Sequence record: MN176217
Direction: 5' to 3' (one strand)
DNA from: Escherichia phage vB_Eco4M-7
DNA: 64,000 bases
A program made the position numbers and the translations under genes. A model generated the notes under the pieces. That model was given only the letters and a program-made list of their open reading frames with translations. It searched no databases and had not been told where the DNA came from. Below are positions 5,199 to 39,406 of this stretch, piece by piece. The stretch's first letter is position 1; each line of letters starts with the position of its first letter.

Positions 5199-5224
5199 TT
5201 ATAATTACCCACCGTTACTAATAG

Positions 5225-5250
5225 GCCGCGCTTAGTCGCGGCTTTTCTTC
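5225..5250 (+). terminator. Rho-independent terminator (GCCGCG-CTTAGT-CGCGGC then TTTTCTTC)
   Basis: Perfect 6-bp GC stem plus T tract right after the + strand early gene block. Confidence 0.55.
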
Positions 5251-5370
5251 GTCCCTATCTCGATGCGCTTCTCCGCGAAAACTCCTTTATCCTTCCCTTC
5301 GTCGTCGCATAATCTTCGTCGAGATGCGCCTTAGTTCGCATAACAGGTATTACGTTAAATGGAGAACATC

Positions 5371-5442
5371 GCGTAAGTCGTTGTTTTATATAGACACATA
5401 TATCGGACCGTTAGGGCGGGTCGCGTAAGTCGTTGTTTTATA
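5371..5442. repeat. Direct repeat CGCGTAAGTCGTTGTTTTATA x2 (5371-5391 and 5422-5442)
   Basis: Read directly in 650-bp non-coding region. Confidence 0.6.
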
Positions 5443-5568
5443 AAGGCGCAAAACTTTCCCTTCGTTCCGAACTAAAACGAGAAATATGCCGACCCTTCGC
5501 CCGAAAATAGTACGCATGCGAAATTACATGCATCTCGAATAATCCCCACCGATACTATCCTACACGCA

Positions 5569-5622
5569 ATCATTCGCTTTCGAATCATTATGCTTCATAT
5601 TATCATGCGTCGAATCATTCGC
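5569..5622. repeat. Direct repeat AATCATTCGCTTTCGAAT x2 (5569-5586 and 5605-5622)
   Basis: Read directly. Confidence 0.6.
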
Positions 5623-5903
5623 TTTCGAATTGTAACGCTGGAAACTGTAACGGCGATTGATTATTGCGTTCGTGTGGTTTTTATGGCATGGGTCTTTTGG
5701 TGCGTTTTGCTACTTGATGGAATTTGCGGTACACTAATCAAAATACGACACATTTGGTCCACTAACTTTTCAAAGAAAAAGTCCTAGACAGTACCGTACT
5801 ATTTTGTACCCACAGGAAATTTGCAGTACACTCCTGCGCAGCAGGCAAAATAAAGGGCCGCACTAAGCGACCCACGATTCACGGTTAAAGCAACATCCAC
5901 CCA

Positions 5904-7124: not shown

Positions 7125-7412
7125 TTATCCATTAGACCCTTCTCCGCTGTTAATGTTGTCTAGAATCAAGGTTGGAATTTCATCTTGAGTTCTGACTTTG
7201 TAATGCGAAGGCATTTTGCTTTCTAACAATGCCTGTTCGGCTTCTCCCTTTGTCTCAAAGAGCGGGATGCACCAATCAACTGCATCGCCATGTTCATCGC
7301 CTGTAACGGCTTTCAAAAAGACAAGGCGTTTGTCTGCAGGGTCGATTCCGCAAATTAAGTATTTTGGAAGAGCCTTTGCTTTCTGAGCCTTATCAATATC
7401 TTCAAATTTCAT
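7125..7412 (-). CDS. hypothetical protein
   Basis: ORF starting MKFEDIDKAQ... Confidence 0.35.
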   Translation of the reverse strand: MKFEDIDKAQKAKALPKYLICGIDPADKRLVFLKAVTGDEHGDAVDWCIPLFETKGEAEQALLESKMPSHYKVRTQDEIPTLILDNINSGEGSNG

Positions 7413-7493
7413 AAAACACCTCACTTGTTAACGTATAATGAGTATAACTTAATTGCGCATAAAGTAAAGGCGCTTTTCAGCGCCTTGAGTGAA

Positions 7494-9833
7494 TTATTTT
7501 GCTGCTTTCAGCGCGGCTATCTCTGCCTCGAGAACCTCGATGCGGTCCATCAATGCAAGAATAGCCTCGTGGTGCAGTGCTGCTGCTACGCCTGGTGTGT
7601 TGACAGATTTTATGTTATCCAACGTCGAACCGTCGCGCAGAGTAACAGGCGATGACTGTGTTTCAGATACTGCTTCAGGAAAGTCTTTCTCTACATCCTG
7701 GGCGATGAAGCCAAAACCGACGGAGCCATTAGTTTCCAGAGTCCATGCCACGCCTCTAATATTGCGCATCTTGACGAGTGGATCAGTGATCCGCTCAATG
7801 TTACTTTTAATACGTTCATCAGATATACTCCGCCACTCCTGACACCTTGCTATTCCATCGGAGCCAAAAAGATAAGAGGCCGCGCCGCCTGTCCCGCTGT
7901 AAACGTTCAATTGAGCGCGGTCCAGCGCGGTCGTGCTACTCCTTATGCCTCCGAGAATCCAGCTTCCGCTGTACCAGTCACCGCTGATTGAGTTTACAAA
8001 ATTTCCTTCTGGAACGTTGGCATAGTTTTGAATCCTTATGGCGTTGTTTTCTGCAGCAGCAACGCCTACTGAATTAACTGGGGATGCAACAAGGTCTTTA
8101 GACCGGATATATGCATCAACAAATATTGTTCCATCAGGGCGCAGAGTTCCAATCTGGGATGTGGAATTTGGCAACACCAATTTGCCATCTTGGTTAAATG
8201 CCCACTCTTGCACCCCATTAGATATCACCGCACCTTGTTCAGATGTTAATCCATCAATCTTGCCGTATGCCTGCAAGAATGCTTGATACGCGATGTTCGT
8301 GCCAATCTTATATTCAGATTTTACACTACCGCCTCTGACAAGCGTTCCGGTTGCAGGTTTTACTGCGTCACCATTAATGACGCTCCAAGTCGTATTCGCG
8401 GCAACAAATCCACCAGATGCACGAATCACCCAAACACCTTCAAAGGCATTAGGTCGAATTTCATTCGCATCATCACGTCCATAAGCGCCATTTGACAGCG
8501 ATGCATCAAAGTTCACGTCTACATAATAACCATCAGAAGTCCCGCGCATACTTCCAGCAGTTTTTACTATTTTTGGCTCAAATGCGCCATATCCTCGCGT
8601 CACGCCAGAGGTGCCGAATGCAGTAAGCATAGACACATTAGGTGAACCAGAAATATTTGGTGCAGCACTCTGCCTGACACGACCGTCGTTTGAAGATACA
8701 CCTCCATCACCACGCCCGAATAAACCTGGGATTGAGCCTGCTTGAACGCCGTTGCGGTCTGGAACTCGAAATGTAGTTGTGCCGTTGCCTAATGAATACT
8801 TGCCGCGTTTCGCTGGGTCCGCTAACCAATCTGCATCAGCAATAGGCGAAAGCATTTGCGCATATGCCCAAAGTTCAGGCCAATCTGCACGATTGAGTAA
8901 TTGGCCGTCAGAAACGACTTCGTAAGGCTGGATGTAAGCACGACTGTCTCGCAAGTGGAAGTCGCCGACGCCATAGTTCATAACACCGTTCATGCTTGGG
9001 CCAACGGTGCCTGTGTTCACTAAGTTCTCAACCCAACGCTTGGTTGCAGCATCATAATCGTTTACCGGATCACCAGCAAGCGGAGTCGGCCCTTGTGGAC
9101 GAATATTCAACCAAGCTTGAGCATTGTCTGCTGATCCTGTGCCGCCCATTGAAGTTGGAACGATGCTTTGATCAGCGACTTGTCCGAATCCAAAAGCAGA
9201 CTTCATCCCCTGTATGGTAGTTTGACCTGTGCCGCCATTTGCGACTGGTATAACGCTTTGCGTGTTATAAACTTGAACCCAATCAGACCAGGATGATATA
9301 TCGACGCTATACAACCTTTGGTATACTGTGTTTATCCAGTAAGGCGTGTATCTCTGCACACAGCTGTTCGTTGAAACTCCCGTTTGTAAAACTTCAAGTA
9401 TTCCAGCTTGTTCTACAGGATAGTTGAGTGCTGTTGACGCCCCAGCATTAGTCGGTTGGTAATATTGACCGAACCAGCTTCCGTTCAGCGCGTTAAGGTT
9501 TATGCCATTAGGAATTACGCCAAAGTTTCGGACAGTACCCGTCAAAGTCGCGGCAGTAGTTCGAATGGAAAGCATATCACCAGCCGCCCAAGCACGCGCT
9601 GCAGTACCTTCCTGTGCACGCTGCACGGTCAGGACGTTTCCAACAACGGCTGTTACTGTGACGATTTCGAATTGGAGGCCTGTTGCGGCGTCAACGATTG
9701 TCGCCACTACACGCTCGTTTGCGCCCAAGGTCGGAAAGCCCGACCCTGAGCGAATTGTGATTGTGGTGTCTGAAGTCGTCGTTGGCTGAGCGAGCGCGAC
9801 CTCAAAGTTGTTTTTGAATATTAGCCTTGGCAT
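7494..9833 (-). CDS. Tail fibre / tailspike protein with C-terminal intramolecular chaperone (peptidase S74-like) domain
   Basis: 779 aa; G/T/S/N-rich beta-type body; C-terminal SDERIKSNIE motif typical of the auto-cleaving chaperone, followed by a coiled-coil tail. Confidence 0.65.
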   Translation of the reverse strand: MPRLIFKNNFEVALAQPTTTSDTTITIRSGSGFPTLGANERVVATIVDAATGLQFEIVTVTAVVGNVLTVQRAQEGTAARAWAAGDMLSIRTTAATLTGTVRNFGVIPNGINLNALNGSWFGQYYQPTNAGASTALNYPVEQAGILEVLQTGVSTNSCVQRYTPYWINTVYQRLYSVDISSWSDWVQVYNTQSVIPVANGGTGQTTIQGMKSAFGFGQVADQSIVPTSMGGTGSADNAQAWLNIRPQGPTPLAGDPVNDYDAATKRWVENLVNTGTVGPSMNGVMNYGVGDFHLRDSRAYIQPYEVVSDGQLLNRADWPELWAYAQMLSPIADADWLADPAKRGKYSLGNGTTTFRVPDRNGVQAGSIPGLFGRGDGGVSSNDGRVRQSAAPNISGSPNVSMLTAFGTSGVTRGYGAFEPKIVKTAGSMRGTSDGYYVDVNFDASLSNGAYGRDDANEIRPNAFEGVWVIRASGGFVAANTTWSVINGDAVKPATGTLVRGGSVKSEYKIGTNIAYQAFLQAYGKIDGLTSEQGAVISNGVQEWAFNQDGKLVLPNSTSQIGTLRPDGTIFVDAYIRSKDLVASPVNSVGVAAAENNAIRIQNYANVPEGNFVNSISGDWYSGSWILGGIRSSTTALDRAQLNVYSGTGGAASYLFGSDGIARCQEWRSISDERIKSNIERITDPLVKMRNIRGVAWTLETNGSVGFGFIAQDVEKDFPEAVSETQSSPVTLRDGSTLDNIKSVNTPGVAAALHHEAILALMDRIEVLEAEIAALKAAK

Positions 9834-9871
9834 TTTACGGTCCTCGTTTTGTCGACAACCGTATTATAACC

Positions 9872-10213
9872 TTAATTTCTTTTGAGAGGAATATGACGGT
9901 TGCTGTCATTATTTGGTTTAATAATGAGCATAAAAACGATTAGAAAGATGATGGCTGATATACTTAATTCAATCAGCGCGGCTTGAGATATGGATTGATC
10001 TTCATGATACTGCTTTTGCATTTCCGCTTTCTTTTGAGCGCAAACTTCAGGTGATATATAATCGCCTTTTGAGTTGCCATAATAAATCTCGCCATTCTCA
10101 GAAATAAGCCTGCCGCAAATATCCGTTTCAGCCTTTGCACTTGACATCATAATAACGGTGCCAATGATAGCAGCGATTGTCCAGATTAGCAGTTGTGATA
10201 AAGTGTTGTTCAT
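9872..10213 (-). CDS. membrane protein (N-terminal signal/TM segment and C-terminal TM helix)
   Basis: Hydrophobic N-terminal segment ending SSAKA and C-terminal hydrophobic stretch. Confidence 0.4.
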   Translation of the reverse strand: MNNTLSQLLIWTIAAIIGTVIMMSSAKAETDICGRLISENGEIYYGNSKGDYISPEVCAQKKAEMQKQYHEDQSISQAALIELSISAIIFLIVFMLIIKPNNDSNRHIPLKRN

Positions 10214-11068: not shown

Positions 11069-11156
11069 ATTACCTCCGGTTTTGAGTTAATATGATTATA
11101 ACGCAGACTTTCAGAAAGGCAAACTTTTTGTGAATTATGCCGTCCATGGCATTGTA

Positions 11157-11387
11157 TCAGTGTGAAGACACAATTAGTGTGCCACTTCCCTTTGCGAAAA
11201 TTTCAACTCCTGGCGGGATTTCGATTGTGCCGTTAACAGCAATGCCGATCAGCTTGTCATCGGCCTTTTCCTCAAAACAAATTTCAGCAGCGCCGCCGCG
11301 AACTTGAATGAGTGCGCCGGATACGTTTTCGGCAACGGAAATAACGGAAGTATAAGAGGGAGTGAGTTGAATGTTGACTAGGGCCAT
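11157..11387 (-). CDS. hypothetical protein
   Basis: ORF 76 aa. Confidence 0.35.
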   Translation of the reverse strand: MALVNIQLTPSYTSVISVAENVSGALIQVRGGAAEICFEEKADDKLIGIAVNGTIEIPPGVEIFAKGSGTLIVSSH

Positions 11388-11474: not shown

Positions 11475-11504
11475 TTGATATAGCTTGTACAAGCAAACTA
11501 TAAT
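11475..11504 (+). promoter_or_regulatory. sigma70-like promoter (-35 TTGATA, 18-bp spacer, -10 TATAAT) abutting the terminase ORF
   Basis: Hexamers read from sequence. Confidence 0.45.
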
Positions 11505-12965
11505 ATGAATAAAATATTAACACATAATTGGAAATTCATGTACCAGTTGAATCCTGCTTTAAAAGAAGTCTGGAAGACAAAAGCGCGATACAAAGTAATA
11601 TACGGCGGTCGTGCATCTTCCAAATCGCACGATGCCGCTGGTTTTGCTATTTATTTGGCGGCAAACTTCAAATTAAAATTCCTTTGCGTTCGACAATTCC
11701 AGAACAAGATTTCTGAATCTGTATATACTCTATTAAAAGACAAAATAGAGATTTCTGATTTCAAAGATGAGTTCAATTTATTAAAGAACTCTATTGAACA
11801 TAAAAGAACTAAATCTGAATTTCTATTTTACGGTATCGCACGTAACGTTGATGAAATTAAATCAACAGAAGGTGTTGACGTCCTTTGGTTGGAAGAAGCG
11901 CACGCGCTTACTGAAGAACAGTGGGACATTATTGAGCCGACAATCCGTAAAGAAGGGTCCGAAATATGGATCATCTTTAACCCTGATGAAGAGGCCGATT
12001 TCGTCTACCAAAACTTTGTTATGCGACCGCCGAAGAATGCCATTGTTAAAAAGATAAACTGGCAAGATAATCCATTCTTGTCGCAAACAATGCTGGACGT
12101 TATCGCAGGTATGTACGAGCGTGACCCGAAAAAGGCAGAGCACGTTTATGGCGGTGTGCCGAAGACTGGCGGCGACAAATCTGTAATCAACCGCGCATTC
12201 GTTAAGGCCGCGCTAAATCTCCACAAACACCCTATGCTGGGGTGGAGTTTGTCAGGGTCTAACCGTATAGGCTTTGACGTAGCGGACGATGGCGACGACC
12301 TTAACGCCACTGCATTCGTCACAGGAAACGTATTGCGCGGCATCAAGACGTGGGAAGGTCTGGAAGATGAATTGTTGAAATCGGCAAGCGGAGTTTGGAA
12401 AGATGCGCTTACATTTGGCGCTTCTATAACTTATGACGCCATCGGTGTCGGCGCTTTTGCTGGTTCAAAATTTGATGAACTGAACGAGTATGCAATACAT
12501 GAAAATCCATCATTTCCAAGAATCGAATTTAATGCGTTCAATGCGCAAGGGTCTGTTGATGATCCTGATGACGTTTTTCTTGAATTACCACACGTTGAAA
12601 TACTCAATAAAGACCATTTCGCAAACATAAAAGCGCAAAAGTGGACTGAAATTGCAGAGAGATTCAGAAAGACATACGAATATGCAACTGGGCAAGCCGT
12701 ATATCCGACTGATGAATTGATTTCAATCGACACCGATGGTATACCGGAACTTGGGATTCCAGCTTGGACCACTGAAGAGATTGAGACGTTTCTTTTTGAG
12801 ATGTCAGCGCCGCGCAAAGATACGTCTGTTCTTGGCAAGTTCAAAGTTGAATCCAAAAAGGATATGGCAAAGCGTGGAGTTAAATCACCTAACAAAGCGG
12901 ACGCAGCAATCATGGCATTGATGAAACCAATCGTTGCAGCATCCGGCTTCTTCTCTAACCTTTAA
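11505..12965 (+). CDS. terL: Terminase large subunit
   Basis: N-terminal Walker A YGGRASSKSH, ATPase then nuclease-type acidic motifs; first gene of morphogenesis module; true start may be ATG 11538. Confidence 0.85.
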   Translation: MNKILTHNWKFMYQLNPALKEVWKTKARYKVIYGGRASSKSHDAAGFAIYLAANFKLKFLCVRQFQNKISESVYTLLKDKIEISDFKDEFNLLKNSIEHKRTKSEFLFYGIARNVDEIKSTEGVDVLWLEEAHALTEEQWDIIEPTIRKEGSEIWIIFNPDEEADFVYQNFVMRPPKNAIVKKINWQDNPFLSQTMLDVIAGMYERDPKKAEHVYGGVPKTGGDKSVINRAFVKAALNLHKHPMLGWSLSGSNRIGFDVADDGDDLNATAFVTGNVLRGIKTWEGLEDELLKSASGVWKDALTFGASITYDAIGVGAFAGSKFDELNEYAIHENPSFPRIEFNAFNAQGSVDDPDDVFLELPHVEILNKDHFANIKAQKWTEIAERFRKTYEYATGQAVYPTDELISIDTDGIPELGIPAWTTEEIETFLFEMSAPRKDTSVLGKFKVESKKDMAKRGVKSPNKADAAIMALMKPIVAASGFFSNL

Positions 12966-13783: not shown

Positions 13784-16159
13784 ATGAAAATTCTTGGCAT
13801 AAAACTCTGGGAGAAGACGCAACCAGAAGCCGAACCAGCGGAGATGCCGCCAGGCGACCCATTGGCACCGTTTGAACGCCTTGAAAGGCGCGGCAGCGGT
13901 CAACGCTGGGAAAAGACTGAAAGCAATCGACCGACCTTTAAAACGGTTGATGACTTCCCTTTATATGAGCCTGATATCAACGGGGACGGTGTTGCAATCA
14001 TCAAAGGTCGCTCAGTAGATTCAGCAACCGTATCCAAAAAAGTTATGGATAATGCCTTAAAGAACATCAGTTCAGAAGGGCAGGTGAATCCATACACAGT
14101 GCCTATTCAGCTGCAAAACTGGTACTTATCGCAATCATTTATCGGATATCAAGCTTGCGCCATCATCGCGCAGCACTGGCTGGTGAACAAGGCTTGTTCC
14201 ATGGTAGGTCGCGATGCGGTCCGTAAAGGCTGGGAAGTAAAATCCAGCTCTGAGTCGGAATTGTCAGTACAGGCCAGCGAACGCCTAAAGCAAATTGATA
14301 AAGAATTTAATATCAAAGAGCACTTAGTTGAAGCCGAACGATTCAAGAATATTTTTGGCATTCGCGTCATCATATTTGACGTGCGCAGCGATGACCCAGA
14401 ATATTATAGCAAACCTTTTAACATCGATGGTGTGACAAAAGGGTCTTATAAGGGAATCATTCAGGTTGACCCTTATTGGATGATGCCATTCTTGACGTCT
14501 GAAAACACTGCGGACCCTGCATCACAGCATTTCTATGATCCAGAATATTGGGTGATCAGCGGACAACGTTATCACCGCAGCCACCTCATCATCTTGCGCA
14601 ACGATGAGCCAGCTGATATTCTCAAGCCGACTTATATCTATGGCGGCATTCCTCTGACTCAGCAGATTTATGAACGTATCTATGCCGCTGAACGTACCGC
14701 TAACGAAGCGCCATTGCTGGCGATGTCTAAGCGTACAACCACGCTGCGGACCGACGTTGACAAGGCGATTGCCAATGAGCGGTCGTTTGCCGAACGTTTG
14801 ATGATGTGGATTAAGTACCGCGACAACTATGCGGTAAAAGTGCTTGGTCAGAAAGAAGAGATGGACCAGTTTGACATCAACTTGTCAGACTTCGACAGCA
14901 TCATCATGAACCAGTACCAGCTGGTGGCCGCAATCGCAAAAGTTCCGTCGACAAAACTGTTAGGGACGTCACCTAAAGGCTTTAACGCCACTGGTGAGTT
15001 CGAAATGGTCAGCTATCACGAAGAATTGGAGACTTGTCAGCAGCACGATTTGACGAAGATTCTTGACCGTCACTATAAAATCCTTTTGAAATCTGAAGGT
15101 GTTGAAGTCGACGTTAAAGTGGCATGGGAGCCAGTTGGTTCACTTACTGCTACTCAGCTTGCAGAGATTAACGACAAACGAGCGAATACTGGTAAGACTC
15201 TCATTGATGCTGGCGTCATCTCCCCTGATGAAGAGCGCGACCGCATCAAGGACGACAAAAACAGCGGCTACAACCGTTTGCCAGAAGATACAGCAGAAGA
15301 AACCCCAGGGATGTCTCCAGAGAATATGGCATTGCTTGGCAAGTCTGCTGGTGAAGTTCTGCAAGGCAAAGCCGATATTGAACAGGCCAAAGCTGATGTC
15401 GTCAAGATGAGCGGCCAGTTCTATAGTAAGACTGGTATCATGCCGGAAGGTGCCGCGCGCGGTGAGTTGGCAGAAAACCCTGACAGGGCACCAGTTGAGA
15501 TTAACATGGATGATACCGATGACGAATCAAGCCATCAGGTTGATGTCCTAACGCAACTGAAAGAAGGTCTGGAGGGTATTGCTGACTATTACCTTAAAGA
15601 AGGTCAGGATGTGGATTTTGACCCTCAAAAAGACGCAAGGTCTGTGCAGCCGTCTACCCTTCCAAGCGTAAAAGGAAATGTGGTGAATTTACGCCACAAC
15701 GTAGGGAAGATGGATGCCGCATCGCTGCCTAAGATGAAGTTGCATGGAATGATTCTTGGAATCGAGAATCCTCGCAACAGCATTCGCAGGGGTAACAGCC
15801 TTGATGGTGAATGGGCAGTTAAGATGCCGCACCATTACGGATTCATCAAAGGAACCAAGGGCGCTGATGGTGATGAAGTCGACTGCTTTGTTGGACCAAA
15901 TATGAAGTCGCCTAAAGTATTCATCATTAACCAAAATGATAATTATTCTGGCGAATTTGATGAACACAAGTGTATGCTTGGATTCGATTCAGCAGAAGAA
16001 GCGAAAGAAGCATATCAGGCATCATTTGGTAACGGTTGGAATGGATTCGACTCAATCCACGAATTGGATGTAGACTCATTCAAGGAGTGGTTGAAGGGTG
16101 ATTGCTCTCAAGCATATGGAGCACTCAATAATCCTACTAATTCACCGAAGCAAGGTTGA
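13784..16159 (+). CDS. Portal protein with about 130-aa C-terminal extension carrying an inorganic pyrophosphatase-like signature
   Basis: Large ORF directly after terminase region; ATG 13784 with GGTGG RBS; C-terminal DGDEVDC motif (15864-15884). Confidence 0.6.
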   Translation: MKILGIKLWEKTQPEAEPAEMPPGDPLAPFERLERRGSGQRWEKTESNRPTFKTVDDFPLYEPDINGDGVAIIKGRSVDSATVSKKVMDNALKNISSEGQVNPYTVPIQLQNWYLSQSFIGYQACAIIAQHWLVNKACSMVGRDAVRKGWEVKSSSESELSVQASERLKQIDKEFNIKEHLVEAERFKNIFGIRVIIFDVRSDDPEYYSKPFNIDGVTKGSYKGIIQVDPYWMMPFLTSENTADPASQHFYDPEYWVISGQRYHRSHLIILRNDEPADILKPTYIYGGIPLTQQIYERIYAAERTANEAPLLAMSKRTTTLRTDVDKAIANERSFAERLMMWIKYRDNYAVKVLGQKEEMDQFDINLSDFDSIIMNQYQLVAAIAKVPSTKLLGTSPKGFNATGEFEMVSYHEELETCQQHDLTKILDRHYKILLKSEGVEVDVKVAWEPVGSLTATQLAEINDKRANTGKTLIDAGVISPDEERDRIKDDKNSGYNRLPEDTAEETPGMSPENMALLGKSAGEVLQGKADIEQAKADVVKMSGQFYSKTGIMPEGAARGELAENPDRAPVEINMDDTDDESSHQVDVLTQLKEGLEGIADYYLKEGQDVDFDPQKDARSVQPSTLPSVKGNVVNLRHNVGKMDAASLPKMKLHGMILGIENPRNSIRRGNSLDGEWAVKMPHHYGFIKGTKGADGDEVDCFVGPNMKSPKVFIINQNDNYSGEFDEHKCMLGFDSAEEAKEAYQASFGNGWNGFDSIHELDVDSFKEWLKGDCSQAYGALNNPTNSPKQG

Positions 16160-17019: not shown

Positions 17020-17940
17020 ATGACGATACCAATCAACACATTCCCTCTATCTGGACAAACTCCAGTCTTGCCTGCGGTGTATGCTAATGGCTTGGCGATT
17101 GTCTCAGAATTCACATCAGATAAAAACCTGATTGTTCCATTGAGTCCGCCGCTTGCATCAGGGTATAACTCAGTAGGTCAATTCTTTATGATTGGCAATG
17201 ATGGCGATTCGACCAGTAAGCCTAATCTGACATTGTCTGTACCTAAGATGGACATCACAGACGTTCAAACTGGCTTGACTGCATCAACAATCACCATTGC
17301 TTTTGGAGAAGCGGTGATTATAGGAATGGAGTCTGGAGGGTCCAAGAATGCTGTCGCCGTTAAGGTAGTCAAATCCAGCGACAACCAATACACGTTACCA
17401 GCTGCGACGGATTCCGTTCTCGGCGGCGTCAAAATAGGAAGCGGAATAAGCGTCGCAGGTGATGGTACAATTAGCGTCACTCAATACTCATTGCCGATTG
17501 CGTCAGCATCTACTTTAGGCGGCGTAAAGGTCGGTACAACTCTATCAATTGATGGTTCCGGTGTGCTTAACGCAGCGGAAAGCACCGTCCAGAATGCCAC
17601 GAACAGTGTTAGCAATCCTCCAACCACTTTGGTTAATCTGGCAACCTTAAACCTTCCTGCAGGAAAGTGGCTTGTGACGGCAAGTCAGTTGACTGTCGCG
17701 ACAGCAGGAATTCAAGCGAACACCGGAATTACAGCCAAATTGTCAACAAGCGATTCAGATATTACGGATGATGCATTTACGATGTCAGCGGGCATTCGGG
17801 CTGCAGGTCGTTTTGGCGGCAACATCCCGACAAAAATAATCACTCTTGCCGCGCCTGGTGATGTATATCTAAACTATCAGTGCACCGATGCATTGACATC
17901 TACCGTTCACGGACAGATCACCGCAATTAAGCTGAACTAA
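17020..17940 (+). CDS. Virion structural protein with internal LGGVK(I/V)G repeats
   Basis: Repeats LGGVKIGSGISVAGDGTISV / LGGVKVGTTLSIDGSGVLN; S/T/G-rich. Confidence 0.4.
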   Translation: MTIPINTFPLSGQTPVLPAVYANGLAIVSEFTSDKNLIVPLSPPLASGYNSVGQFFMIGNDGDSTSKPNLTLSVPKMDITDVQTGLTASTITIAFGEAVIIGMESGGSKNAVAVKVVKSSDNQYTLPAATDSVLGGVKIGSGISVAGDGTISVTQYSLPIASASTLGGVKVGTTLSIDGSGVLNAAESTVQNATNSVSNPPTTLVNLATLNLPAGKWLVTASQLTVATAGIQANTGITAKLSTSDSDITDDAFTMSAGIRAAGRFGGNIPTKIITLAAPGDVYLNYQCTDALTSTVHGQITAIKLN

Positions 17941-31412: not shown

Positions 31413-32285
31413 TTGAAAAAGAGAATCCTTAAAGTCACCTTATCTATGCCGGATGGCACAAGCCAAGTGCTTGATGAAGGATTGATGCTCAGATGCCGAA
31501 TCAAAAAGGCAGCACTTTCCGTGCAGAATAAGGCCACAATCGAAGTTGCAGGATTGACAGGGTACTTGAGAGAGTACCTGCTTTCCAACTTCACCGCATT
31601 CAACAAACGTCTGCGTGATCAAGGCCAATTGGCGGCGAATTATGTCAACGTAACAATTGAAGCTGGATATAGAGAAGGCAACGTTGTTAGTAGCAACTTA
31701 GTCTACAAGGGGCAAGTCACAACGGTCGAGATAACAGCGCCGCCGCCGAACATCGTCATACGCATCACTTGCTACACCAACCAGATAAACAGGACTAAGT
31801 TTATCACTCAAGCTGCACCGTCAAACCCAACATTCAAAGAGTTTGTGGAGTGGTCGGCAAAGCAAATGGACATTGATACTGTTATATGCGATACTTCGAT
31901 TAACAATCAGCGCCTTGTTAACCCAGGCCGCACAACATATGTTGCAGCCGCCTTGTTGCTTGAGATTCAGAACTATCAAAGGAACTCTATTGCGGCATAT
32001 ATCGATGATGATACGCTCATCGTCAAGGATAAAGACAAAATTCTGAATCCAGAACAGATAACGGTGATTGAGGAATTTGTCGGAATACCGATGTGGAACG
32101 AGTGGGGTGCTGACTTCACTTGCATGTATAACGCGGATTTGAAGCTTGCCCAAGGTGTGAAATTCAAATCAGTCTTAAACCCAAGCTTGAACGACACCAC
32201 ATTTGTCATCATGCAACTTGAATATGATTTAGCAAGTCGTGATGATATATTTACGGTGACGGGCGGCGTTGCACCATCGGCCTAA
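31413..32285 (+). CDS. Tail / baseplate hub protein candidate
   Basis: 290 aa directly after tape measure; TTG start (alternative ATG 31446). Confidence 0.4.
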   Translation: MKKRILKVTLSMPDGTSQVLDEGLMLRCRIKKAALSVQNKATIEVAGLTGYLREYLLSNFTAFNKRLRDQGQLAANYVNVTIEAGYREGNVVSSNLVYKGQVTTVEITAPPPNIVIRITCYTNQINRTKFITQAAPSNPTFKEFVEWSAKQMDIDTVICDTSINNQRLVNPGRTTYVAAALLLEIQNYQRNSIAAYIDDDTLIVKDKDKILNPEQITVIEEFVGIPMWNEWGADFTCMYNADLKLAQGVKFKSVLNPSLNDTTFVIMQLEYDLASRDDIFTVTGGVAPSA

Positions 32286-32287
32286 AT

Positions 32288-32809
32288 ATGAGAAAGAATA
32301 AAGTAATTGAGCTGTTTGGAGTTACTTATGAAATACATCAATTCAGCGCAATAGACGCGTTTGAAATGGTTGATGCGATAAGCATATTAACTCCACTTGA
32401 ATTATTAAGTGAATGTTATGTTATTAAATATGACGGAACTAAAGTCAGATTAAACTCTGAGAAGGCCATAAGTGAAGAAGTGAAAAGTGTGCCAAATCAC
32501 TTGCCGCCCAACCTTGTATTGAAAGTTCTAATGGAAGCGGTGAAGAAGCACAATTTTGGATTCCTCAGTGATTGGAAAGGCACTAAGATCCCAAATAGAT
32601 TCTTGGCTGACGTCCCGACCGTAGAGCCTAATTATCTTGAGCCGATGGTTGCAAGCCTAATAAACAATGGTCTTGCTTCGTTAAAAGAATTGGAAGAATA
32701 TTATTCATTGCGTGATGCATTCGCTATGTTTGATGGACTAATAGCAAAATCACTTAATGAAGCCTACTCAAACGAAGCTGCCATTAAAGAATCAAAGTCA
32801 AATCGCTAA
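32288..32809 (+). CDS. hypothetical baseplate-region protein
   Basis: ORF 173 aa. Confidence 0.4.
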   Translation: MRKNKVIELFGVTYEIHQFSAIDAFEMVDAISILTPLELLSECYVIKYDGTKVRLNSEKAISEEVKSVPNHLPPNLVLKVLMEAVKKHNFGFLSDWKGTKIPNRFLADVPTVEPNYLEPMVASLINNGLASLKELEEYYSLRDAFAMFDGLIAKSLNEAYSNEAAIKESKSNR

Positions 32810-32866
32810 AATATTGCTTATAGACTCCTTATAGATTATAATTTGTTGATCAGATCTAAGGAGTCT

Positions 32867-33595
32867 ATGATGGCAGAAAAGTTAACCCAACTTACAAGCC
32901 CCAACCAAACTGACAAATCAAGTATGTTTGCCGCGCTGCAGGGAATGCTGGACCGTGGCAAGTATACCACTGACGGCATGATTCCTGCACAAGTAATATC
33001 TTATGACCGCAAACAAAATTTAGCAGTCATAAAGCCTGTTATTCATTTCGTAAGTCTTGATGATAAACCAGTGGAGCGTCAACCTTTGGTGTCAATTCCT
33101 GTATTGGCAATTGGCGGCGGCGGCTTCGTGATCAACTTTCCTTTGAAAGAGGGCGATTTGGGCTGGATATTCGCTGGCGACCGCGAGTTGTCGACATTCC
33201 TTGAAGAATTGAAGCCGACCGCGCCTACCAATGGCCGCGCGAAAACTTTCGCTGATGGACTGTTCATACCGGATGTATTCCGAAAATACACCATAAGCGG
33301 AGAGGATGCAGGCTCAATGGTAATTCAGTCACTCAGCGGCGCTGTACGAATCGCATTAAGTGATGACTCGATAAACATAACTGCATCGGCTGGAGTAAAT
33401 GTGAAAACACCAATAACCACTATCGACCAACAATTGATAGTTAATGGAAAGGCAACGTTCAATGGTGGTATAGAAGGGAAAGAAGGAACGACGGCAACGC
33501 TTCCGACTGGCACAACAATCGGCGGCACAAATGTATCCACTCACGGTCACATAGGTAACGGACCTGGAAACAGAACTGGGGATATGATAGAATGA
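32867..33595 (+). CDS. Baseplate protein (spike / gpV-like candidate)
   Basis: ATG 32867 after TAAGGAG RBS; just upstream of baseplate J. Confidence 0.4.
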   Translation: MMAEKLTQLTSPNQTDKSSMFAALQGMLDRGKYTTDGMIPAQVISYDRKQNLAVIKPVIHFVSLDDKPVERQPLVSIPVLAIGGGGFVINFPLKEGDLGWIFAGDRELSTFLEELKPTAPTNGRAKTFADGLFIPDVFRKYTISGEDAGSMVIQSLSGAVRIALSDDSINITASAGVNVKTPITTIDQQLIVNGKATFNGGIEGKEGTTATLPTGTTIGGTNVSTHGHIGNGPGNRTGDMIE

Positions 33596-34869: not shown

Positions 34870-37608
34870 ATGCAAAAGTTTGACACAAACCTGTTGCAAA
34901 ACCTTAAGTGGATGCAGAACAACGCGCCAAACATCACATCTTTGGTTCAGAAGAAGAGTGACTGGTATGAGCGATATCAAGATCAGTTTTGGATTGACTG
35001 GTACAAGAACATATTCAACATTGATACTTGTGATGCAATGGGCATCTATATTTGGTGTGACATACTATGCATACCAAGGGATTTTGTTGACTTAAGCAAC
35101 TATGAGCACAACTGGGCATTTGGACCCACACGCGACAACTTCGAAGGGCCGGACAATATCGGCGGCAACTTCTTTGGTGCTGGCGGAAAGGTTGTGAAAA
35201 ACATCGAAGAAGCCCGCATCCTTCTGAAGCTTCGTTATCTGACGCTTACAAGTGATGGCCGCATAGAAAGCATCAACCGTATGCTTAAGTGGATTTTCAA
35301 CCGTGGAGAAGATTGGGATTACTCTTCATCGCGCTACGCATATGTGACAGATAATACTCAAGGCGCGGTGTCTTCTTCTGAAGCAACAAACGGCTCATTC
35401 CTTCTGTACGACTGGCAGGGGTCAACTGAGATTCAGCACGATTATAAACAAGTTCTTTTGAGCCACGGCAACAACGCAGGACTTACCATAAGTGGGGTGG
35501 CAGGGACCGTTTCGCGAATGGCACACCCAGACTGGTATTCATGGGGTAATGGTTCCGGCGCTGGTATTGTCGGCGGTGATACACGACAATATGGCGGCCC
35601 TGACTATTACGGCCAACTGTGCGGTGACTACCCAGGAGAGGCCATAGAGAATTTCGCCAACGCAGTACGGGTCATCAAGACCGCTTCCAGCGGCGAGCCT
35701 GTGTATTCTTTGGCCAATAATCCAAGCGCCAAATCTATTGCTCTTCCTTCTCAGGCTGGTGTAAACGTTTGCTATAGCTTCTACATAAAAGTGCTTTCTG
35801 AAAACGTGGCTTCTGTTTCCGTAACAGAGAACAGTGATGCATCGAGTAATGGAAAACTTTTCGACCCAGTGACTGGGCAGTTCAACCTTGACTCTTCTTT
35901 GAGTTATTTCATCACAGGCAAGTTCGACGGTGTGAGAAGGGAATCAAACCGTGGTGGCATCAAGGCAATCGGCGGCGATTGGTACAGAATCTGGATTGTA
36001 GAGCAAACTGCAAACGCGACGGCTGGGGTGAAAACAAGCTTTTCAATTGAGTTGAAAGCAACTGCCGCTGGATCAACCCAGACTCGCGAATTGCCTGAAG
36101 GGTCTGATGCGCTTCTTTTTGGATACTCCATTTGTGTTTGCGACCCTGTTCAAAATCCTAATGGACCTGAGCCTTATTTCTATGGGACTCAAAATCCTCC
36201 TGCAGATGGAACGGCAATCCTGTCTGTTACGGCAGGAACGCTCAACAACATATCTTGCGCAAACGGTCCGTTGACAACAAGGGATGGCGTGGTAGGTGAA
36301 TCATTCATGCAGCCTGGTTCATCGCTTGCATACTCTGGTTCAATCGACGGCTACCCGTACCCAGGAAACGCAACATTGATTGCAGAGACTGACGGCATCA
36401 GACGCTCATGGAACGTTAGCCGATTGGACGGCGTACCGCCGCCGCCGACCGCTGACTATTACATGGAATATGTCATCGGGCCTTATTTCGCCAACAACTT
36501 ATCCGACAACTTTAAGACGCTAGTTGGCGACAGGAATGAAGGATTCTTGCCAGCAAATGCCGGAATACGTTGGCAGCTTTACCAAGAAGTCGCAGACTTA
36601 TCTGATATTGATTTGACTGTCAGCAACATAACAGACACGCGAGTAGGATTCGAAACGGAAGGTGTCGCATGGATTAACACTGACGGCATCATCAGAGTTG
36701 GCGGCATAAACGAGTGGCCGTTGAACAACTTCAAAGGTGTTATACGACAGCTTGAATCTTTGAAAGGTGTGAACCAAGTTATCGACGGCGCACTTGTCAA
36801 CGACTATTCAATCTCAAAAGCATCAAGAGATGACTTTGGTCGTGAAATCCCACGTGCCGCGATCACAAACTACTGGCGATACACACAACCCAATGACGGC
36901 ACATCTTTTGGCAATATCGTCAAGGACGGAGATAACACGGTAACGGCGACGCCAATCAGCGGTGTGCCCAACCAGTTCCCATCATTCAAGCTTTCCGCTA
37001 CAATAGGGACTGTGCCAGCATCCGGCTATGCACGTGCTGTACTTGCTACTAAATACACTGGCAACCTGACTGGTCCTTTGTCATTTATCGCAATAGTTAA
37101 AAACAACACGGTAAACGGTCAAAAACTTTTCGTAACCGTACCGGATGGTATGGGCGGCTATATCCCTAAATTCTACAGCATAGGCGCAGGTGATTTGCAA
37201 CGTATCGAAATTGACCTTGCCGCTGAGATTGTTGCAGGAACGACTTGGGATGGTTCGACAGGTGGAATCAGCATTGGTTTGATATCAGGGAAAGACTTGC
37301 CGACCGAAGTTGGTACGACTCTTGAACTTGATATTTTAAGCTTGATGCTTGTTTCTGGTAATACGATGAATGCGCTTGCGATTTCAACAAGCGAAGACTT
37401 TGCAAAGAAAACTGCAACTTCTATATACATCAAAAACCCAGGGTCACTGGCGACTGGAGTTCAATTGATAGCTTCGAATGGGGATGTTGTAGCGACAGTA
37501 AACTTTCCAAGAAGTGCTGCTGGCGGTTATGTTTCAAGCATGAATATAACTGACTTAACTGGTGATTGGGCATCAACCCTTTTATCAAAAATTAAATACA
37601 TCGTGTAG
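34870..37608 (+). CDS. Large tail fibre / baseplate wedge protein
   Basis: 912 aa, G/T/S/N-rich, between baseplate J and distal fibre gene. Confidence 0.5.
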   Translation: MQKFDTNLLQNLKWMQNNAPNITSLVQKKSDWYERYQDQFWIDWYKNIFNIDTCDAMGIYIWCDILCIPRDFVDLSNYEHNWAFGPTRDNFEGPDNIGGNFFGAGGKVVKNIEEARILLKLRYLTLTSDGRIESINRMLKWIFNRGEDWDYSSSRYAYVTDNTQGAVSSSEATNGSFLLYDWQGSTEIQHDYKQVLLSHGNNAGLTISGVAGTVSRMAHPDWYSWGNGSGAGIVGGDTRQYGGPDYYGQLCGDYPGEAIENFANAVRVIKTASSGEPVYSLANNPSAKSIALPSQAGVNVCYSFYIKVLSENVASVSVTENSDASSNGKLFDPVTGQFNLDSSLSYFITGKFDGVRRESNRGGIKAIGGDWYRIWIVEQTANATAGVKTSFSIELKATAAGSTQTRELPEGSDALLFGYSICVCDPVQNPNGPEPYFYGTQNPPADGTAILSVTAGTLNNISCANGPLTTRDGVVGESFMQPGSSLAYSGSIDGYPYPGNATLIAETDGIRRSWNVSRLDGVPPPPTADYYMEYVIGPYFANNLSDNFKTLVGDRNEGFLPANAGIRWQLYQEVADLSDIDLTVSNITDTRVGFETEGVAWINTDGIIRVGGINEWPLNNFKGVIRQLESLKGVNQVIDGALVNDYSISKASRDDFGREIPRAAITNYWRYTQPNDGTSFGNIVKDGDNTVTATPISGVPNQFPSFKLSATIGTVPASGYARAVLATKYTGNLTGPLSFIAIVKNNTVNGQKLFVTVPDGMGGYIPKFYSIGAGDLQRIEIDLAAEIVAGTTWDGSTGGISIGLISGKDLPTEVGTTLELDILSLMLVSGNTMNALAISTSEDFAKKTATSIYIKNPGSLATGVQLIASNGDVVATVNFPRSAAGGYVSSMNITDLTGDWASTLLSKIKYIV

Positions 37609-37618
37609 AGGAACGGCA

Positions 37619-39406
37619 ATGCCAACACTTATTAACAGACCTTTCGCGCAAAGCGGTGATGTATCCGTGGTGCCGGATGCAAGTCCAAGCGGTTATGTGA
37701 ACTTCCAGCGCGGCTACACCCCTGACTATGCACTTGCGCTGGAAGCCGGAAACGTCGCCGCGAAAGCAGTTGAACGTGAGTCGATGAACTGGTTGCTGAA
37801 TCTGATCACCGACAACCTTATGTTCATCCAGGACCACGGCGCTCAACAGTATTTCTCGTCTGACTTGAAGCCAGATGGATACCCGAAAAATGCCATCGTT
37901 GTCAGCAACTCTGGCACCCCTTCAGCGCCTGAATGGCGCATTTTCCAGAGTGCGGTAGACGGCAACACCAGCGCAGTCCCAGCTAACGGCGAAACGGAAT
38001 CTTGGCAGGAATTGACGCTGCCTAGCGAAGCGAGAAAATATATTCCTATGCCTGCTGGCGGCGATGCGCAAAACCCGTATTTTGTTCGCGGACTGATTTC
38101 AAACTTTGTGGACTTTGATAATATCACGACTTCCACAACTATTGTCATTCAATCTGATGCCGTTGCCGCTCTCTGCTCTAATATCCCGAACGCGGTTGGT
38201 GCGACGAAGGTTGCAGGTCGTCTCCAGGTTTGCGCTTGGCAGGTTAATGCGCAGACTTTCGCCCTGCAGCAATACACGTCAATGAACGGATATGTTTTCA
38301 CCCGCTCTTATACTTCTGGTGCTTGGAGTACCTGGATTCAAAATGCTACTGTTCAAGACGTGCAAATTGGAACGCCGAATCTTGCATCAGGTAAAGGCGC
38401 ACAAGATATAATCCTTACCGTTCCAGCAGGTTATTCATGGCCTCCGTCAGCAGGTAGTCGCCTGACCATCGTTAATGATGTCACGACCACCGGACCTGTC
38501 ACCGTGACCATTGGTGCAAACAAAGTTGCAGTCCTTGGATTCGACGGCGGCGAGCTGCCAGCAGGGTCCATCGTCGGTCTTCTTCCTTTTACTATTATTT
38601 ATGACGGCACCGTTTGGCGTCTTCTTCAAGCATTCGGCGCGGCGCAAATCGGTGTCGATGCTAGTGAGCCGCAACAGTTTGTCACAAAGCGCCAACTCGA
38701 TGCTTTGGCCGCGAAGTTGATAACTATGGGTGATGTATTCGAAGTCGGTGAGACTCGATTCTTGACTAATGGCACAAACCCAAATACTAAACTGGGCGCT
38801 TACGGTCAGGTGTGGACCAGATTGCCTGACAACATGGTCATCAGGACGTCTGGCACGGCAAGAAACGGTCTTGACACTGGAGGTGCAGACTCTGTTACTC
38901 TTACCGCCGCCATGCTTCCTCTGCACAATCACAGCGTTAACATAACTACGCGACAGAGTGGTCCATGGTCCAATACCACTGGAGACGCAGGCAACCATAA
39001 CCACACAGGCGATACCAGTCAAAACGGTGCTCACGTGCACGGAATGGATTCAGCAGGCAACCACCACCATGACAGTAGCTGGGGTGAATCGAATACGAAT
39101 GATGCGCGGTATGGCGTGTATGATGGGACGCACAACAACTTCGGAAGTCGAAAGGGCGGCGACTGGGACAACTATAAATACAACACCTCAACTAACGGCA
39201 ACCACGTTCACAATATTCAATCTTCTGGGTCACACACTCATGGGTTGAATATAAATTACGCTGGCAATCACAGCCATGGATATACCCTCCCCGCTCACAC
39301 TCACGATGTGGTCGGTAACACTGGCAATGCAGGGCAGTCCGTCCCAACGGCTGTTTCAACTCTGCCGCGATATGTCGTCTTGAACGGCTGGTACAGAAGC
39401 GCATAA
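37619..39406 (+). CDS. Tail fibre protein with His-rich HxH repeat tip
   Basis: C-terminal repeats NHNHTG, AHVHG, NHHHD, NHVHN, SHTHG, NHSHG, AHTHD, as in metal-binding fibre tips. Confidence 0.6.
   Translation: MPTLINRPFAQSGDVSVVPDASPSGYVNFQRGYTPDYALALEAGNVAAKAVERESMNWLLNLITDNLMFIQDHGAQQYFSSDLKPDGYPKNAIVVSNSGTPSAPEWRIFQSAVDGNTSAVPANGETESWQELTLPSEARKYIPMPAGGDAQNPYFVRGLISNFVDFDNITTSTTIVIQSDAVAALCSNIPNAVGATKVAGRLQVCAWQVNAQTFALQQYTSMNGYVFTRSYTSGAWSTWIQNATVQDVQIGTPNLASGKGAQDIILTVPAGYSWPPSAGSRLTIVNDVTTTGPVTVTIGANKVAVLGFDGGELPAGSIVGLLPFTIIYDGTVWRLLQAFGAAQIGVDASEPQQFVTKRQLDALAAKLITMGDVFEVGETRFLTNGTNPNTKLGAYGQVWTRLPDNMVIRTSGTARNGLDTGGADSVTLTAAMLPLHNHSVNITTRQSGPWSNTTGDAGNHNHTGDTSQNGAHVHGMDSAGNHHHDSSWGESNTNDARYGVYDGTHNNFGSRKGGDWDNYKYNTSTNGNHVHNIQSSGSHTHGLNINYAGNHSHGYTLPAHTHDVVGNTGNAGQSVPTAVSTLPRYVVLNGWYRSA

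Follow-up and report, generated by a model that had tools for sequence, protein, structure and literature searches.

Known fibres related to gp27

The closest described system is the 'T-shaped' dual-RBD fibre of the genus Wifcevirus, Gp114 of phage ManiWeber/Bas99 (Bas99_0109; Humolli et al., PLoS Biol 2025, PMC11990801), the orthologue of gp27 of vB_Eco4M-7(n), itself a Wifcevirus. At both loci the fibre gene lies on the minus strand, with a 342-bp gene upstream, small genes, and then a divergent terminase gene. The proteins are 777 aa (Gp114) and 779 aa (gp27) long, are 83 to 100% identical over aa 1 to 120 and 93 to 100% over aa 211 to 360, and both end in an S-D-x-R-x-K chaperone. Unlike in Gp114, aa ~361 to 750 of gp27 represent another allele, with 3 to 30% identity over most of RBD2 and the chaperone, and ManiWeber depends on the O16 antigen (PMC11990801), compared to O157 for vB_Eco4M-7 (PMC11074155).

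Two fibres from other phage groups resemble the distal part of gp27. EP335 gp13 of a Gordonclarkvirinae podovirus (Witte et al. 2021, PMC8217332) shares 64% identity with gp27 over 526 aa (gp27 aa 255 to 779), ungapped around the predicted cleavage site, and its chaperone is 77% identical to that of gp27. In contrast to gp27, which has its own baseplate anchor and belongs to a myovirus, EP335 gp13 has a different N-terminus and is attached via the proximal fibre protein gp12 in a branched podovirus fibre. LtfA of the T5-like siphovirus DT57C (PDB 8HQZ chain d) matched gp27 aa 233 to 777 with E=5e-121; the collar and the first part of RBD1 (aa 233 to ~390) are about 85 to 90% identical, and aa 235 to 511 are 67% identical overall. 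LtfA differs from gp27 in its length (1076 aa), its long proximal shaft, and the second fibre LtfB that it carries, and its chaperone is of a divergent subtype also present in ManiWeber and WFH, unlike that of gp27.

The chaperone of endosialidase K1F (3GW6, the founding S74 member) and the MyRF ICA (7DC3) share with gp27 the Pfam family, the Ser-Lys register, and the fold of a body followed by a C-terminal helix. Identity to these two is only 13 to 25%, and in place of their passengers, a sialidase stalk or a transcription factor, gp27 carries a non-enzymatic fibre tip. The fibre type, its unusual genome position, and its swappable parts have already been published, and the gp27 case described here is correct but ordinary.

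Identification of gp27 as a lateral tail fibre

In the 64,000-nt stretch of vB_Eco4M-7 DNA analyzed (record MN176217, referred to as the window), gp27 is encoded by an ATG-initiated ORF of 779 aa on the minus strand (7494..9833, stop codon at 7494-7496). Taken as a whole, the observations are best explained by gp27 being, with high probability, the variable lateral tail fibre and receptor-binding protein of this O157-dependent phage, with an S74 intramolecular chaperone, predicted autoproteolysis, and exchange of an internal segment. PHROG 6921 'tail fiber' covered the protein end to end (E=3.4e-238), the 779-aa product is named a tail fibre in PMC7048862 and PMC11074155, and it was the highest-scoring protein by mass spectrometry (MS) of CsCl-banded phage (Sci Rep 2020, PMC7048862). 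The tail-fibre call of an earlier sequence-only reading of this DNA is thereby confirmed. The O157 antigen gene rfbE is needed for infection by vB_Eco4M-7 (PMC11074155). The protein is 100% identical to O157vBn_00011 in GenBank record PP596836.1. The label 'hypothetical' given there can be replaced by that of a lateral tail fibre specific for O157, bearing an S74 chaperone for which processing at S671|D672 is predicted.

Domain organization of the fibre

The N-terminal baseplate-anchor domain (aa 1 to 101; 9531..9833, minus strand, as for all fibre domains) is conserved in the genus, with aa 1 to 120 being 87 to 100% identical in five other Wifceviruses. It matched tail fibre chain 8jov_1 at the N-terminus of the latter (E=2e-7), anchor-like matches were found in many unrelated phages, and an anchor role has been proposed for the ManiWeber orthologue (PMC11990801). 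The following domain (aa 102 to 225; 9159..9530) resembles the knobs of R2-type pyocin fibres (6ct8/6cl6, E about 3e-5 to 7e-5), and its core (aa 121 to 210) varies within the genus, aa 151 to 180 being 27 to 77% identical compared to 93 to 100% on either side.

A conserved shaft/collar (aa 211 to 360) and then the variable RBD1 make up the next feature (aa 226 to 511; 8301..9158), recognized by sliding identity among Wifcevirus alleles, which placed the hypervariable part of RBD1 at aa ~361 to 450, and by homology to LtfA. The collar/RBD1 module of gp27 was present in 273 phage records. An RBD1 profile built from 24 homologues matched only DT57C LtfA in the PDB and did not reach T4 gp12 or gp37, and no Pfam collar match was obtained in gp27 at E<=0.1, so that the Gp12-like character described for this domain in the genus (PMC11990801) was not reproduced; for the equivalent segment of EP335 gp13, a published HHpred analysis gave the T4 gp12 tip (PMC8217332). 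RBD2 (aa 512 to 671; 7821..8300), delimited by homologue matches, ends at the predicted cleavage serine. Its closest matches were from phiG7 (77%), SA126VB (76%), and EP335 (72%), while it is only about 13 to 30% identical to the ManiWeber and WFH alleles. Its 'T5-like' assignment and the T shape of the fibre rest on AlphaFold-Multimer models of orthologues (PMC11990801). The nearest RBD relatives of gp27 belong to O157 phages from four lineages.

In the proposed arrangement, three gp27 chains would form one fibre, fixed to the baseplate by the anchor and continued by the knob and the conserved shaft/collar, and RBD1 (about aa 361 to 511) and RBD2 (about aa 512 to 671) would recognize the O157 O-antigen.

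C-terminal S74 intramolecular chaperone

The last 109 residues (aa 671 to 779) of this protein, which matches tail-fibre families end to end, constitute the chaperone region. Pfam PF13884 (Peptidase_S74) matched aa 671 to 722 over profile positions 1 to 57 of 58 with 44.4 bits and E=2e-11, far beyond chance given the curated cut-off of 22 bits. The motif S671-D-E-R-I-K676 (codons at 7806..7823), which had been noticed near the C-terminus from the sequence, contains the predicted Ser-Lys catalytic dyad and the predicted scissile bond S671|D672; by motif alignment it corresponds to SDRRIK of phage S16 gp37 and (A)DLRAK of MyRF. Residues S671, D672, R674, and K676 were invariant across 18 homologues, and the pattern S-D-x-R-[IV]-K was kept in all six Wifcevirus alleles, even in those whose chaperone bodies are only 13 to 30% identical.

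The chaperone body (aa 672 to 779; 7497..7820) was further delimited by PDB profile and structure searches. As a single sequence, the C-terminal 139 aa gave only weak phmmer matches in the PDB (0.13 to 0.66), so that a homologue profile was needed, and this profile reached S16 gp37 (2.5e-9) and the MyRF ICA (7.6e-7). An AlphaFold2 monomer model of the last 139 aa had pLDDT values of 76 to 94 over the chaperone and a long C-terminal helix (aa ~746 to 778), which corresponds to the trailing coiled coil expected from the sequence; in solved members of the family such a helix is part of a trimeric coiled coil. In Foldseek the model matched 7dc3 with probability 1.00 (E=4e-6, TM 0.62, rmsd 2.7 Å) and 3gw6 with probability 0.91 to 0.99. 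The alignment and profile comparison proposed in the sequence-only reading thus returned an S74-type chaperone.

The last 108 residues would trimerize via the C-terminal helix, nucleate folding of the preceding beta-structure, and then be removed by autoproteolysis at S671|D672 catalyzed by Ser671 and Lys676. The computed masses of the predicted products are 71.0 kDa for the mature chain and 11.7 kDa for the released fragment of 108 aa.

Evidence for self-cleavage

Self-cleavage has been demonstrated for a homologue, since EP335 gp13, whose Ser621 aligns with Ser671 of gp27, loses 11.8 kDa by a cut between Ser621 and Asp622 according to intact-mass MS, and cleavage is complete when the protein is expressed alone (PMC8217332). 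A C-terminally truncated virion product was likewise apparent for the ECML-117 orthologue in banded phage, where all 109 PSMs were located N-terminal of the site, the last ending eight residues before the serine, and none of the eight predicted chaperone peptides was detected (P about 8e-8). No such truncation was seen for vB_Eco4M-7 itself. In the re-analyzed data of PMC7048862, the only proteomic data on this phage, six peptides covered 83% of the chaperone region, which contributed 500 of the 2012 gp27 PSMs (25%, compared to 14% of the length), and their median peak areas equalled those of peptides from the mature part, although bottom-up MS is blind to covalent attachment of the chaperone. 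The chaperone was therefore not absent from the sample. The site-spanning peptide SISDER was sought in the MS supplements of both vB_Eco4M-7 and ECML-117 and was found in neither. The earlier claim that gp27 is self-cleaving is therefore borne out only for the homologue EP335 gp13, while in vB_Eco4M-7 the chaperone peptides are as abundant as the rest of the protein.

These peptide counts raise the alternative that the S74 domain is genuine but stays on or with the virion in vB_Eco4M-7, either because a sizeable fraction is uncleaved or because the cleaved chaperone is held non-covalently on the tip, and the viability of phage with a C-terminally HiBiT-tagged gp27 (PMC11074155) is compatible with it. 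This is considered unlikely in view of the ECML-117 orthologue, which was prepared in the same manner and yielded none of eight predicted chaperone peptides, and of the complete cleavage of EP335 gp13. The vB_Eco4M-7 banded sample also contained helicase, endolysin, and prohead protease (PMC7048862) and so did not consist of pure virions; the heavy sampling of gp27, well above that of any other protein, suggests an excess of free fibre. In addition, no luminescence arose when non-O157 strains were mixed with tagged phage at 1e7 PFU/ml, which argues weakly against tag-bearing virions (PMC11074155). Slightly less likely still is that a large chaperone fraction remains with the vB_Eco4M-7 particle, uncleaved or capping the RBD2 tip. 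If retained there, unlike in the ECML-117 orthologue, the domain might still act after assembly, e.g., by masking or stabilizing the second receptor site until host contact.

The preferred reading, release of the chaperone by autoproteolysis, also bears on the published reporter O157_vB-HiBiT(gp27), in which the tag sits on the chaperone and not on the mature fibre. The C-terminal tag was tolerated and gave the strongest signal among 13 tagged phages (Commun Biol 2024, PMC11074155), in line with its release on a soluble fragment. If confirmed, this would recommend self-cleaving chaperones as tag sites in the design of reporter phages in general.

Locus, neighbouring genes, and promoter- and terminator-like elements

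The gp27 gene lies far from the tail genes and is oriented opposite to them, as the sequence-only reading had stated with a distance of about 25 kb. From its start (9833) it is 21.6 kb to the baseplate hub gene (31413), 25.0 kb to the gene of a 912-aa baseplate protein (34870), and 27.8 kb to the conserved fibre gene (~37619), all on the plus strand. The divergent large terminase gene (11505/11538..12965), which heads the packaging and structural module, is only about 1.7 kb away. The same layout was found in ManiWeber, ECML-117, FEC19, WFH, and Ro157lw.

The 912-aa DUF2612 baseplate protein (34870..37608, plus strand; Pfam DUF2612) aligned through aa 1 to 573 with PB1 gp45 (504 aa) end to end, and nothing in PB1 gp45 corresponds to its C-terminal ~340 aa; as a speculation, the extra fibre gp27 may dock on this baseplate protein. 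The other tail fibre (37619..39406, plus strand; PHROG 5717 tail protein) has visible HxH motifs at its tip, is 32% identical to PB1 gp46 over the N-terminal 390 aa, and is of the type described as the conserved fibre of the genus (PMC11990801).

The minus-strand genes flanking gp27 encode products of 71 to 131 aa and are small, as had been noted. The gene for gp28, a predicted membrane protein of 113 aa (ORF at 9872..10213, minus strand), is always directly upstream of the fibre gene; gp28 is nearly identical in six phages and had no Pfam or PHROG match. PHROG and Pfam searches assigned no function to nine small neighbouring ORFs, and no tRNA or Rfam family was found within the window.

The fibre gene belongs to a leftward block diverging from the terminase gene, at the head of which is a sigma70-like promoter candidate, TTGCCT-16-TATAAT (11095..11122, minus strand). 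The strict form TTG[AC][CT][AT]-N16-18-TATAAT occurred at seven sites in the window compared to 0.41 ± 0.68 in shuffles; a generic promoter scan of the window gave 19 hits versus 15.2 expected and showed no enrichment. The fibre gene is preceded by a 70-nt leader (9834..9903, minus strand) with a perfect TATAAT (9863-9868), 29 nt before the ATG, a weak -35 element (TTCCTC), and a GAGGA Shine-Dalgarno sequence (9841-9845). The leader is identical at 69 to 70 of 70 nt in six Wifceviruses, whose flanks are 87 to 92% identical, and may be a promoter of the gene's own. The extended motif around its TATAAT (AAGGYTATAATAC) had five matches in the window compared to 1.9 expected, none upstream of genes; since it did not recur beyond chance, it is not a shared phage-specific promoter. 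Eight nucleotides after the fibre stop codon, a consensus scan located the stem-loop AAGGCGCT-GAAA-AGCGCCTT (7467..7486, minus strand; RNA fold of -14 kcal/mol, z=-2.6). This terminator-like hairpin, which would end the fibre transcript, was kept in all six phages, with a different loop and retained stem in WFH.

Origin of the gene and exchange of its internal segment

A recent, strain-specific acquisition of the whole gene, as a moron-like cassette among early genes and expressed early, is suggested by its placement on the opposite strand 25 kb from the tail genes, by the TATAAT leader and terminator-like hairpin of its own, and by the syntenic block of Pbunavirus PB1, which consists of small genes only and lacks a fibre. 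This explanation is very improbable. All six Wifceviruses examined have the gene in the same place, with conserved flanks on both sides and a conserved N-terminal stretch of 120 aa, so that any acquisition of the gene predates the genus, and the GC content of the gene (0.46 to 0.47) is unremarkable within the window range (0.41 to 0.51). Nor is the designation of the neighbours as early-type supported, because gp26 and gp32 were detected in banded phage (PMC7048862) and the promoter at the block head is of the type preceding the terminase, portal, protease, and baseplate operons. Relatives of vB_Eco4M-7 such as Pbunavirus 14-1 use sigma70-like promoters widely (PMC10914365), so that a promoter of this kind is no sign of an early gene; in the passages covered, the 14-1 transcriptome study does not place the block preceding the terminase gene in any temporal class. 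Both a recent whole-gene acquisition and a non-structural early protein were therefore rejected on the grounds of the genus-wide fixed locus, the neighbours present in phage preparations, and the structural-type promoter.

Almost no credence was given to an enzymatic tailspike (endosialidase or other depolymerase), to which the Pfam family name 'Chaperone of endosialidase' and the 'endo-N-acetylneuraminidase' annotation of the SP13 orthologue in OP352608.1, a label transferred from the domain name, would point, and it was rejected. The chaperone is the only Pfam domain that matched gp27 at E<=0.1, with no sign of a sialidase, a beta-propeller, a pectate lyase, or another catalytic domain, and the PDB gave no glycosidase or lyase sequence match. 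Every PHROG match is a tail-fibre family, and the body of gp27 shares homology with two fibres, DT57C LtfA and EP335 gp13, the latter of which binds O157 cells as a fibre (PMC8217332).

The variation is consistent instead with a lateral fibre that exchanges an internal segment. In the six-Wifcevirus alignment the flanks were 87 to 92% identical, and the interval ~7600-8640 was not alignable. The N-terminal 234 aa of gp27 were found in Wifceviruses only, while the RBD1 and the RBD2+IMC segments are common to Tequintavirus, Gordonclarkvirinae, and 60-kb siphoviruses. The unit of exchange as read from these alignments is the segment aa ~361 to 750 between conserved flanks, and not the locus. The suggestion of a horizontally acquired or swappable module consequently holds for the RBD segments, which are shared across phage groups, but not for the gene, which is no recent or mobile insertion.

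A change of host range would proceed by recombination replacing aa ~361 to 750, for which the conserved N-terminal third and the last ~12 codons with the downstream DNA may serve as homology arms. For host-range engineering in Wifceviruses, the junctions are given by the conserved aa 1 to 360, the swappable aa ~361 to 750, and the conserved last 12 codons together with the hairpin.

Identification of the fibre protein and its chaperone domain

The only ORF at window 7494..9833 (- strand) starts with ATG and encodes the 779-aa lateral tail fibre gp27 (vB_Eco4M-7_27). Its nucleotide sequence was 100% identical to CDS O157vBn_00011 of vB_Eco4M-7n (PP596836.1, genus Wifcevirus; coordinates + 3041 give window coordinates), labelled 'hypothetical protein'. 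PHROG 6921 'tail fiber protein' spanned residues 23 to 779 (E=3e-238), and the Pfam search returned no family besides PF13884 (Peptidase_S74, 'Chaperone of endosialidase'), at aa 671-722 with E=2e-11 and 44.4 bits (cut-off, 22 bits). The S74 motif is real and a chance motif is ruled out.

The motif SDERIK occupies aa 671-676. PF13884 was present in nearly all homologues of the last 139 aa, and aligning 18 of these showed S671, D672, R674, K676 and the AALHHEAILAL helix start to be invariant; S-D-x-R-[IV]-K was kept even in the most divergent Wifcevirus alleles. The alignment profile matched phage S16 gp37 (6F45, E=2.5e-9) and the MyRF ICA domain (7DC3, 7.6e-7), with a weak further match to 3GUD, the chaperone of the GA-1 neck appendage; SDERIK was in register with SDRRIK and (A)DLRAK of solved family members. 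The AlphaFold2 model of the C-terminal fragment had a pLDDT of 76-94 over the domain and a 33-residue helix at its end; its only significant Foldseek matches were 7DC3 (E=4e-6, TM 0.62, rmsd 2.7 A) and 3GW6, the endosialidase chaperone (prob 0.91-0.99). Profile, motif, fold and position agree, and therefore the C terminus fits the S74 family definition, confirming the domain call of the sequence-only reading, which had proposed C-terminal alignment with S74 chaperones as a check.

The fibre orthologue of SP13 (OP352608.1) is labelled 'endo-N-acetylneuraminidase'; because no sialidase domain was detectable in gp27, the label seems to have been wrongly carried over from the Pfam name. In PP596836.1, all CDS but one are labelled hypothetical. 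The continuous ORF at window 17020..17940 (+), which corresponds to the MS-abundant 306-aa vB_Eco4M-7_38 and to the single CDS Bas99_0006, is annotated in that record as two CDS, 13979-14608 and 14632-14898.

Published experiments and predicted cleavage of the fibre

In MS of CsCl-banded phage, vB_Eco4M-7_27 was the highest-scoring protein, a 'tail fibre protein' of 82.7 kDa with 34 peptides and 80% coverage (PMC7048862). The phage requires the O157 antigen (rfbE), and an 11-aa HiBiT tag at the C terminus of the 779-aa gp27 gave a viable phage, the brightest among 13 tagged constructs, with the tag taken by the authors as exposed on the outside of the fibre (PMC11074155). The homologue EP335 gp13, a binder of O157 cells, is shortened by 11.8 kDa through a cut between Ser621 and Asp622 (PMC8217332). 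Its identity to gp27 is 64% over 526 residues, with Ser621 aligned to Ser671 and the chaperones 77% identical; the predicted cleavage products of gp27 would be 71.0 kDa and 11.7 kDa. As the literature covers the genus, a close homologue and gp27 itself, the essentials count as already known. By-products are a corrected annotation of gp27, a map of the swap junctions in its gene, a reinterpreted reporter-tag position and one testable discrepancy between the proteomics of vB_Eco4M-7 and ECML-117.

Published MS peptides were mapped onto gp27 and its ECML-117 orthologue. In the orthologue, 18/18 peptides (109 PSMs) lay N-terminal of the predicted cleavage site, the last stopping 8 residues short of the serine, and 0/8 predicted chaperone peptides were found (P about 8e-8, length-proportional sampling), the pattern expected of a truncated virion protein. 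The C-terminally truncated product that had been proposed as a proteomic check was thus seen for ECML-117 but not for vB_Eco4M-7, in which six chaperone peptides covered 83% of the domain, contributed 500/2012 PSMs and had median areas similar to the mature part. A peptide spanning the cleavage site was absent from both data sets. The simplest explanation for the vB_Eco4M-7 peptides is surplus unassembled fibre or free chaperone, as the sample also held helicase, endolysin and prohead protease and gp27 was its most heavily sampled protein; possibly, the chaperone is instead retained or incompletely cleaved in this phage.

Location and conservation of the locus

The genes for the terminase large subunit (11505/11538..12965), baseplate (31413-34863), 912-aa DUF2612 protein (34870..37608), conserved fibre (ending at 39406), portal, capsid, sheath and endolysin are all on the + strand. 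The gp27 gene is encoded on the - strand, at a distance of 21.6-27.8 kb from those for baseplate and fibre; its identity and its location outside and antisense to the tail module had both been read correctly. The gene is part of a leftward block that extends from about 11387 to 5904 and whose start is separated from the terminase gene by only some 120-150 nt. The layout of fibre, 342-bp gene, 3-5 small genes and divergent terminase is common to ManiWeber/Bas99, ECML-117, FEC19, WFH and Ro157lw, and the equivalent block of the distant relative Pseudomonas phage PB1 holds small genes only, without a fibre; the gene was therefore acquired by the lineage before Wifcevirus diversification.

Wifceviruses have two fibres, a conserved one encoded in the tail locus and a 'T-shaped' one (ManiWeber Gp114) that combines an N-terminal anchor, a Gp12-like first receptor-binding domain (RBD1), a T5-like RBD2 and, at the C terminus, an intramolecular chaperone; the T-shaped fibre has a conserved N terminus, whereas its RBDs vary and are exchanged horizontally (PMC11990801). 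The 504-aa PB1 gp45 aligns over its full length with aa 1-573 of the DUF2612 baseplate protein, whose C-terminal ~340 aa lack a PB1 counterpart; co-occurring with the extra fibre in Wifceviruses, this extension is a candidate docking site for it.

Mosaicism inside the fibre gene

By blastn, the fibre flanks were 87-92% identical among Wifcevirus relatives and window ~7600-8640 was unalignable to most. Scored per 30-aa block against five other Wifcevirus alleles, identity was 87-100% (mean) at aa 1-120 and 56-79% (mean; lowest 27%) in the knob at aa 121-210 (~9204..9473, -), returned to 93-100% at aa 211-360 and fell to about 29% at aa 391-450. At aa 451-540 high identity was confined to the O157 phages; it was allele-dependent (3-87%) at aa 541-750 and back up to 52-86% at aa 751-779, and DNA 3' of the stop codon was conserved again. 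These alignments indicate a stable locus with the gene interior as the exchanged cassette. The proposed exchangeable module thus survives inside the gene but not as a mobile locus, its position being the same in all compared Wifceviruses. The pyocin-R2-like knob adds a third variable patch to the fibre (aa 151-180, 27-77%; neighbours, 93-100%); the publications consulted discuss only two variable RBDs.

PDB sequence search divided gp27 into three parts, aa 4-101 like the N terminus of a tail fibre chain of which 8JOV contains 18 copies, aa 102-225 like the knob of the R2-pyocin fibre, and aa 233-777 matching DT57C LtfA (8HQZ chain d, E=5e-121). When three segments were compared by tblastn with 50,697 phage records, aa 1-234 occurred full length in Wifceviruses only (27 records, 73-90% identical), its anchor and knob being found separately in many other phages. 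Segment aa 235-511 occurred in 273 records, including DT57C ltfA (67%), Salmonella T5-like phages and phiEco32-like podoviruses. Segment aa 512-779 was nearest to phiG7 (77%), SA126VB (76%) and EP335 (72%), and was full length in just one further Wifcevirus. For the core, aa 378-670, no relative above 64.5% identity was found, and the best relatives were largely phages of four lineages with O157 hosts on record.

Putative expression signals and neighbouring genes

The 70 nt 5' of the fibre ATG were identical at 69-70/70 positions in six phages and hold a GAGGA Shine-Dalgarno and, 29 nt before the ATG, a perfect TATAAT with a weak -35. A stem-loop 8 nt past the stop (-14 kcal/mol, z=-2.6) was conserved, with a changed loop and kept stem in WFH. 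Both are putative, as promoter and terminator. The strict sigma70-like pattern TTG[AC][CT][AT]-N16-18-TATAAT occurred 7 times in the window versus 0.41 +/- 0.68 in shuffles, at 11475, 13717, 18452, 28750, 32814 and 58912 (+) and at 11122..11095 (-), the head of the leftward block. Most sites lie 26-38 nt upstream of structural-gene start codons (terminase, portal, protease, baseplate-spike), which suggests that host RNA polymerase promoters drive the structural operons. The neighbours had been described as early-type; this is not supported, as the block head shares its putative promoter type with the structural operons. Pbunavirus 14-1 has 26 sigma70-like promoters distributed genome-wide (PMC10914365), and such promoters are therefore no marker of early genes.

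Directly upstream of the fibre gene, always across an invariant 38-nt spacer, lies gp28 (9872..10213, -), a predicted 113-aa membrane protein. Two Cys sit in the loop between its N-terminal signal/TM segment and its C-terminal TM segment, and the protein hardly differs among six Wifceviruses. Pfam and PHROG gave no match, and the WFH record leaves it unannotated; a holin-like or superinfection exclusion role is possible. Flanking the block are gp32 (76 aa, 11157..11387, -) and gp26 (~95-99 aa, 7125..7424, -), both without detectable homology. They were found by MS in CsCl-banded phage at 55% and 62% coverage (PMC7048862), and ECML-117 gp30 and gp23 were likewise detected; gp32 and gp26 are possibly minor components of the virion that have escaped recognition. 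The 705 bp between convergent genes at 5199..5903 carry no annotated genes, tRNA or Rfam match, are bracketed by terminator-like hairpins at 5223-5244 (+) and 5873-5855 (-), and are about 92% conserved with ManiWeber.
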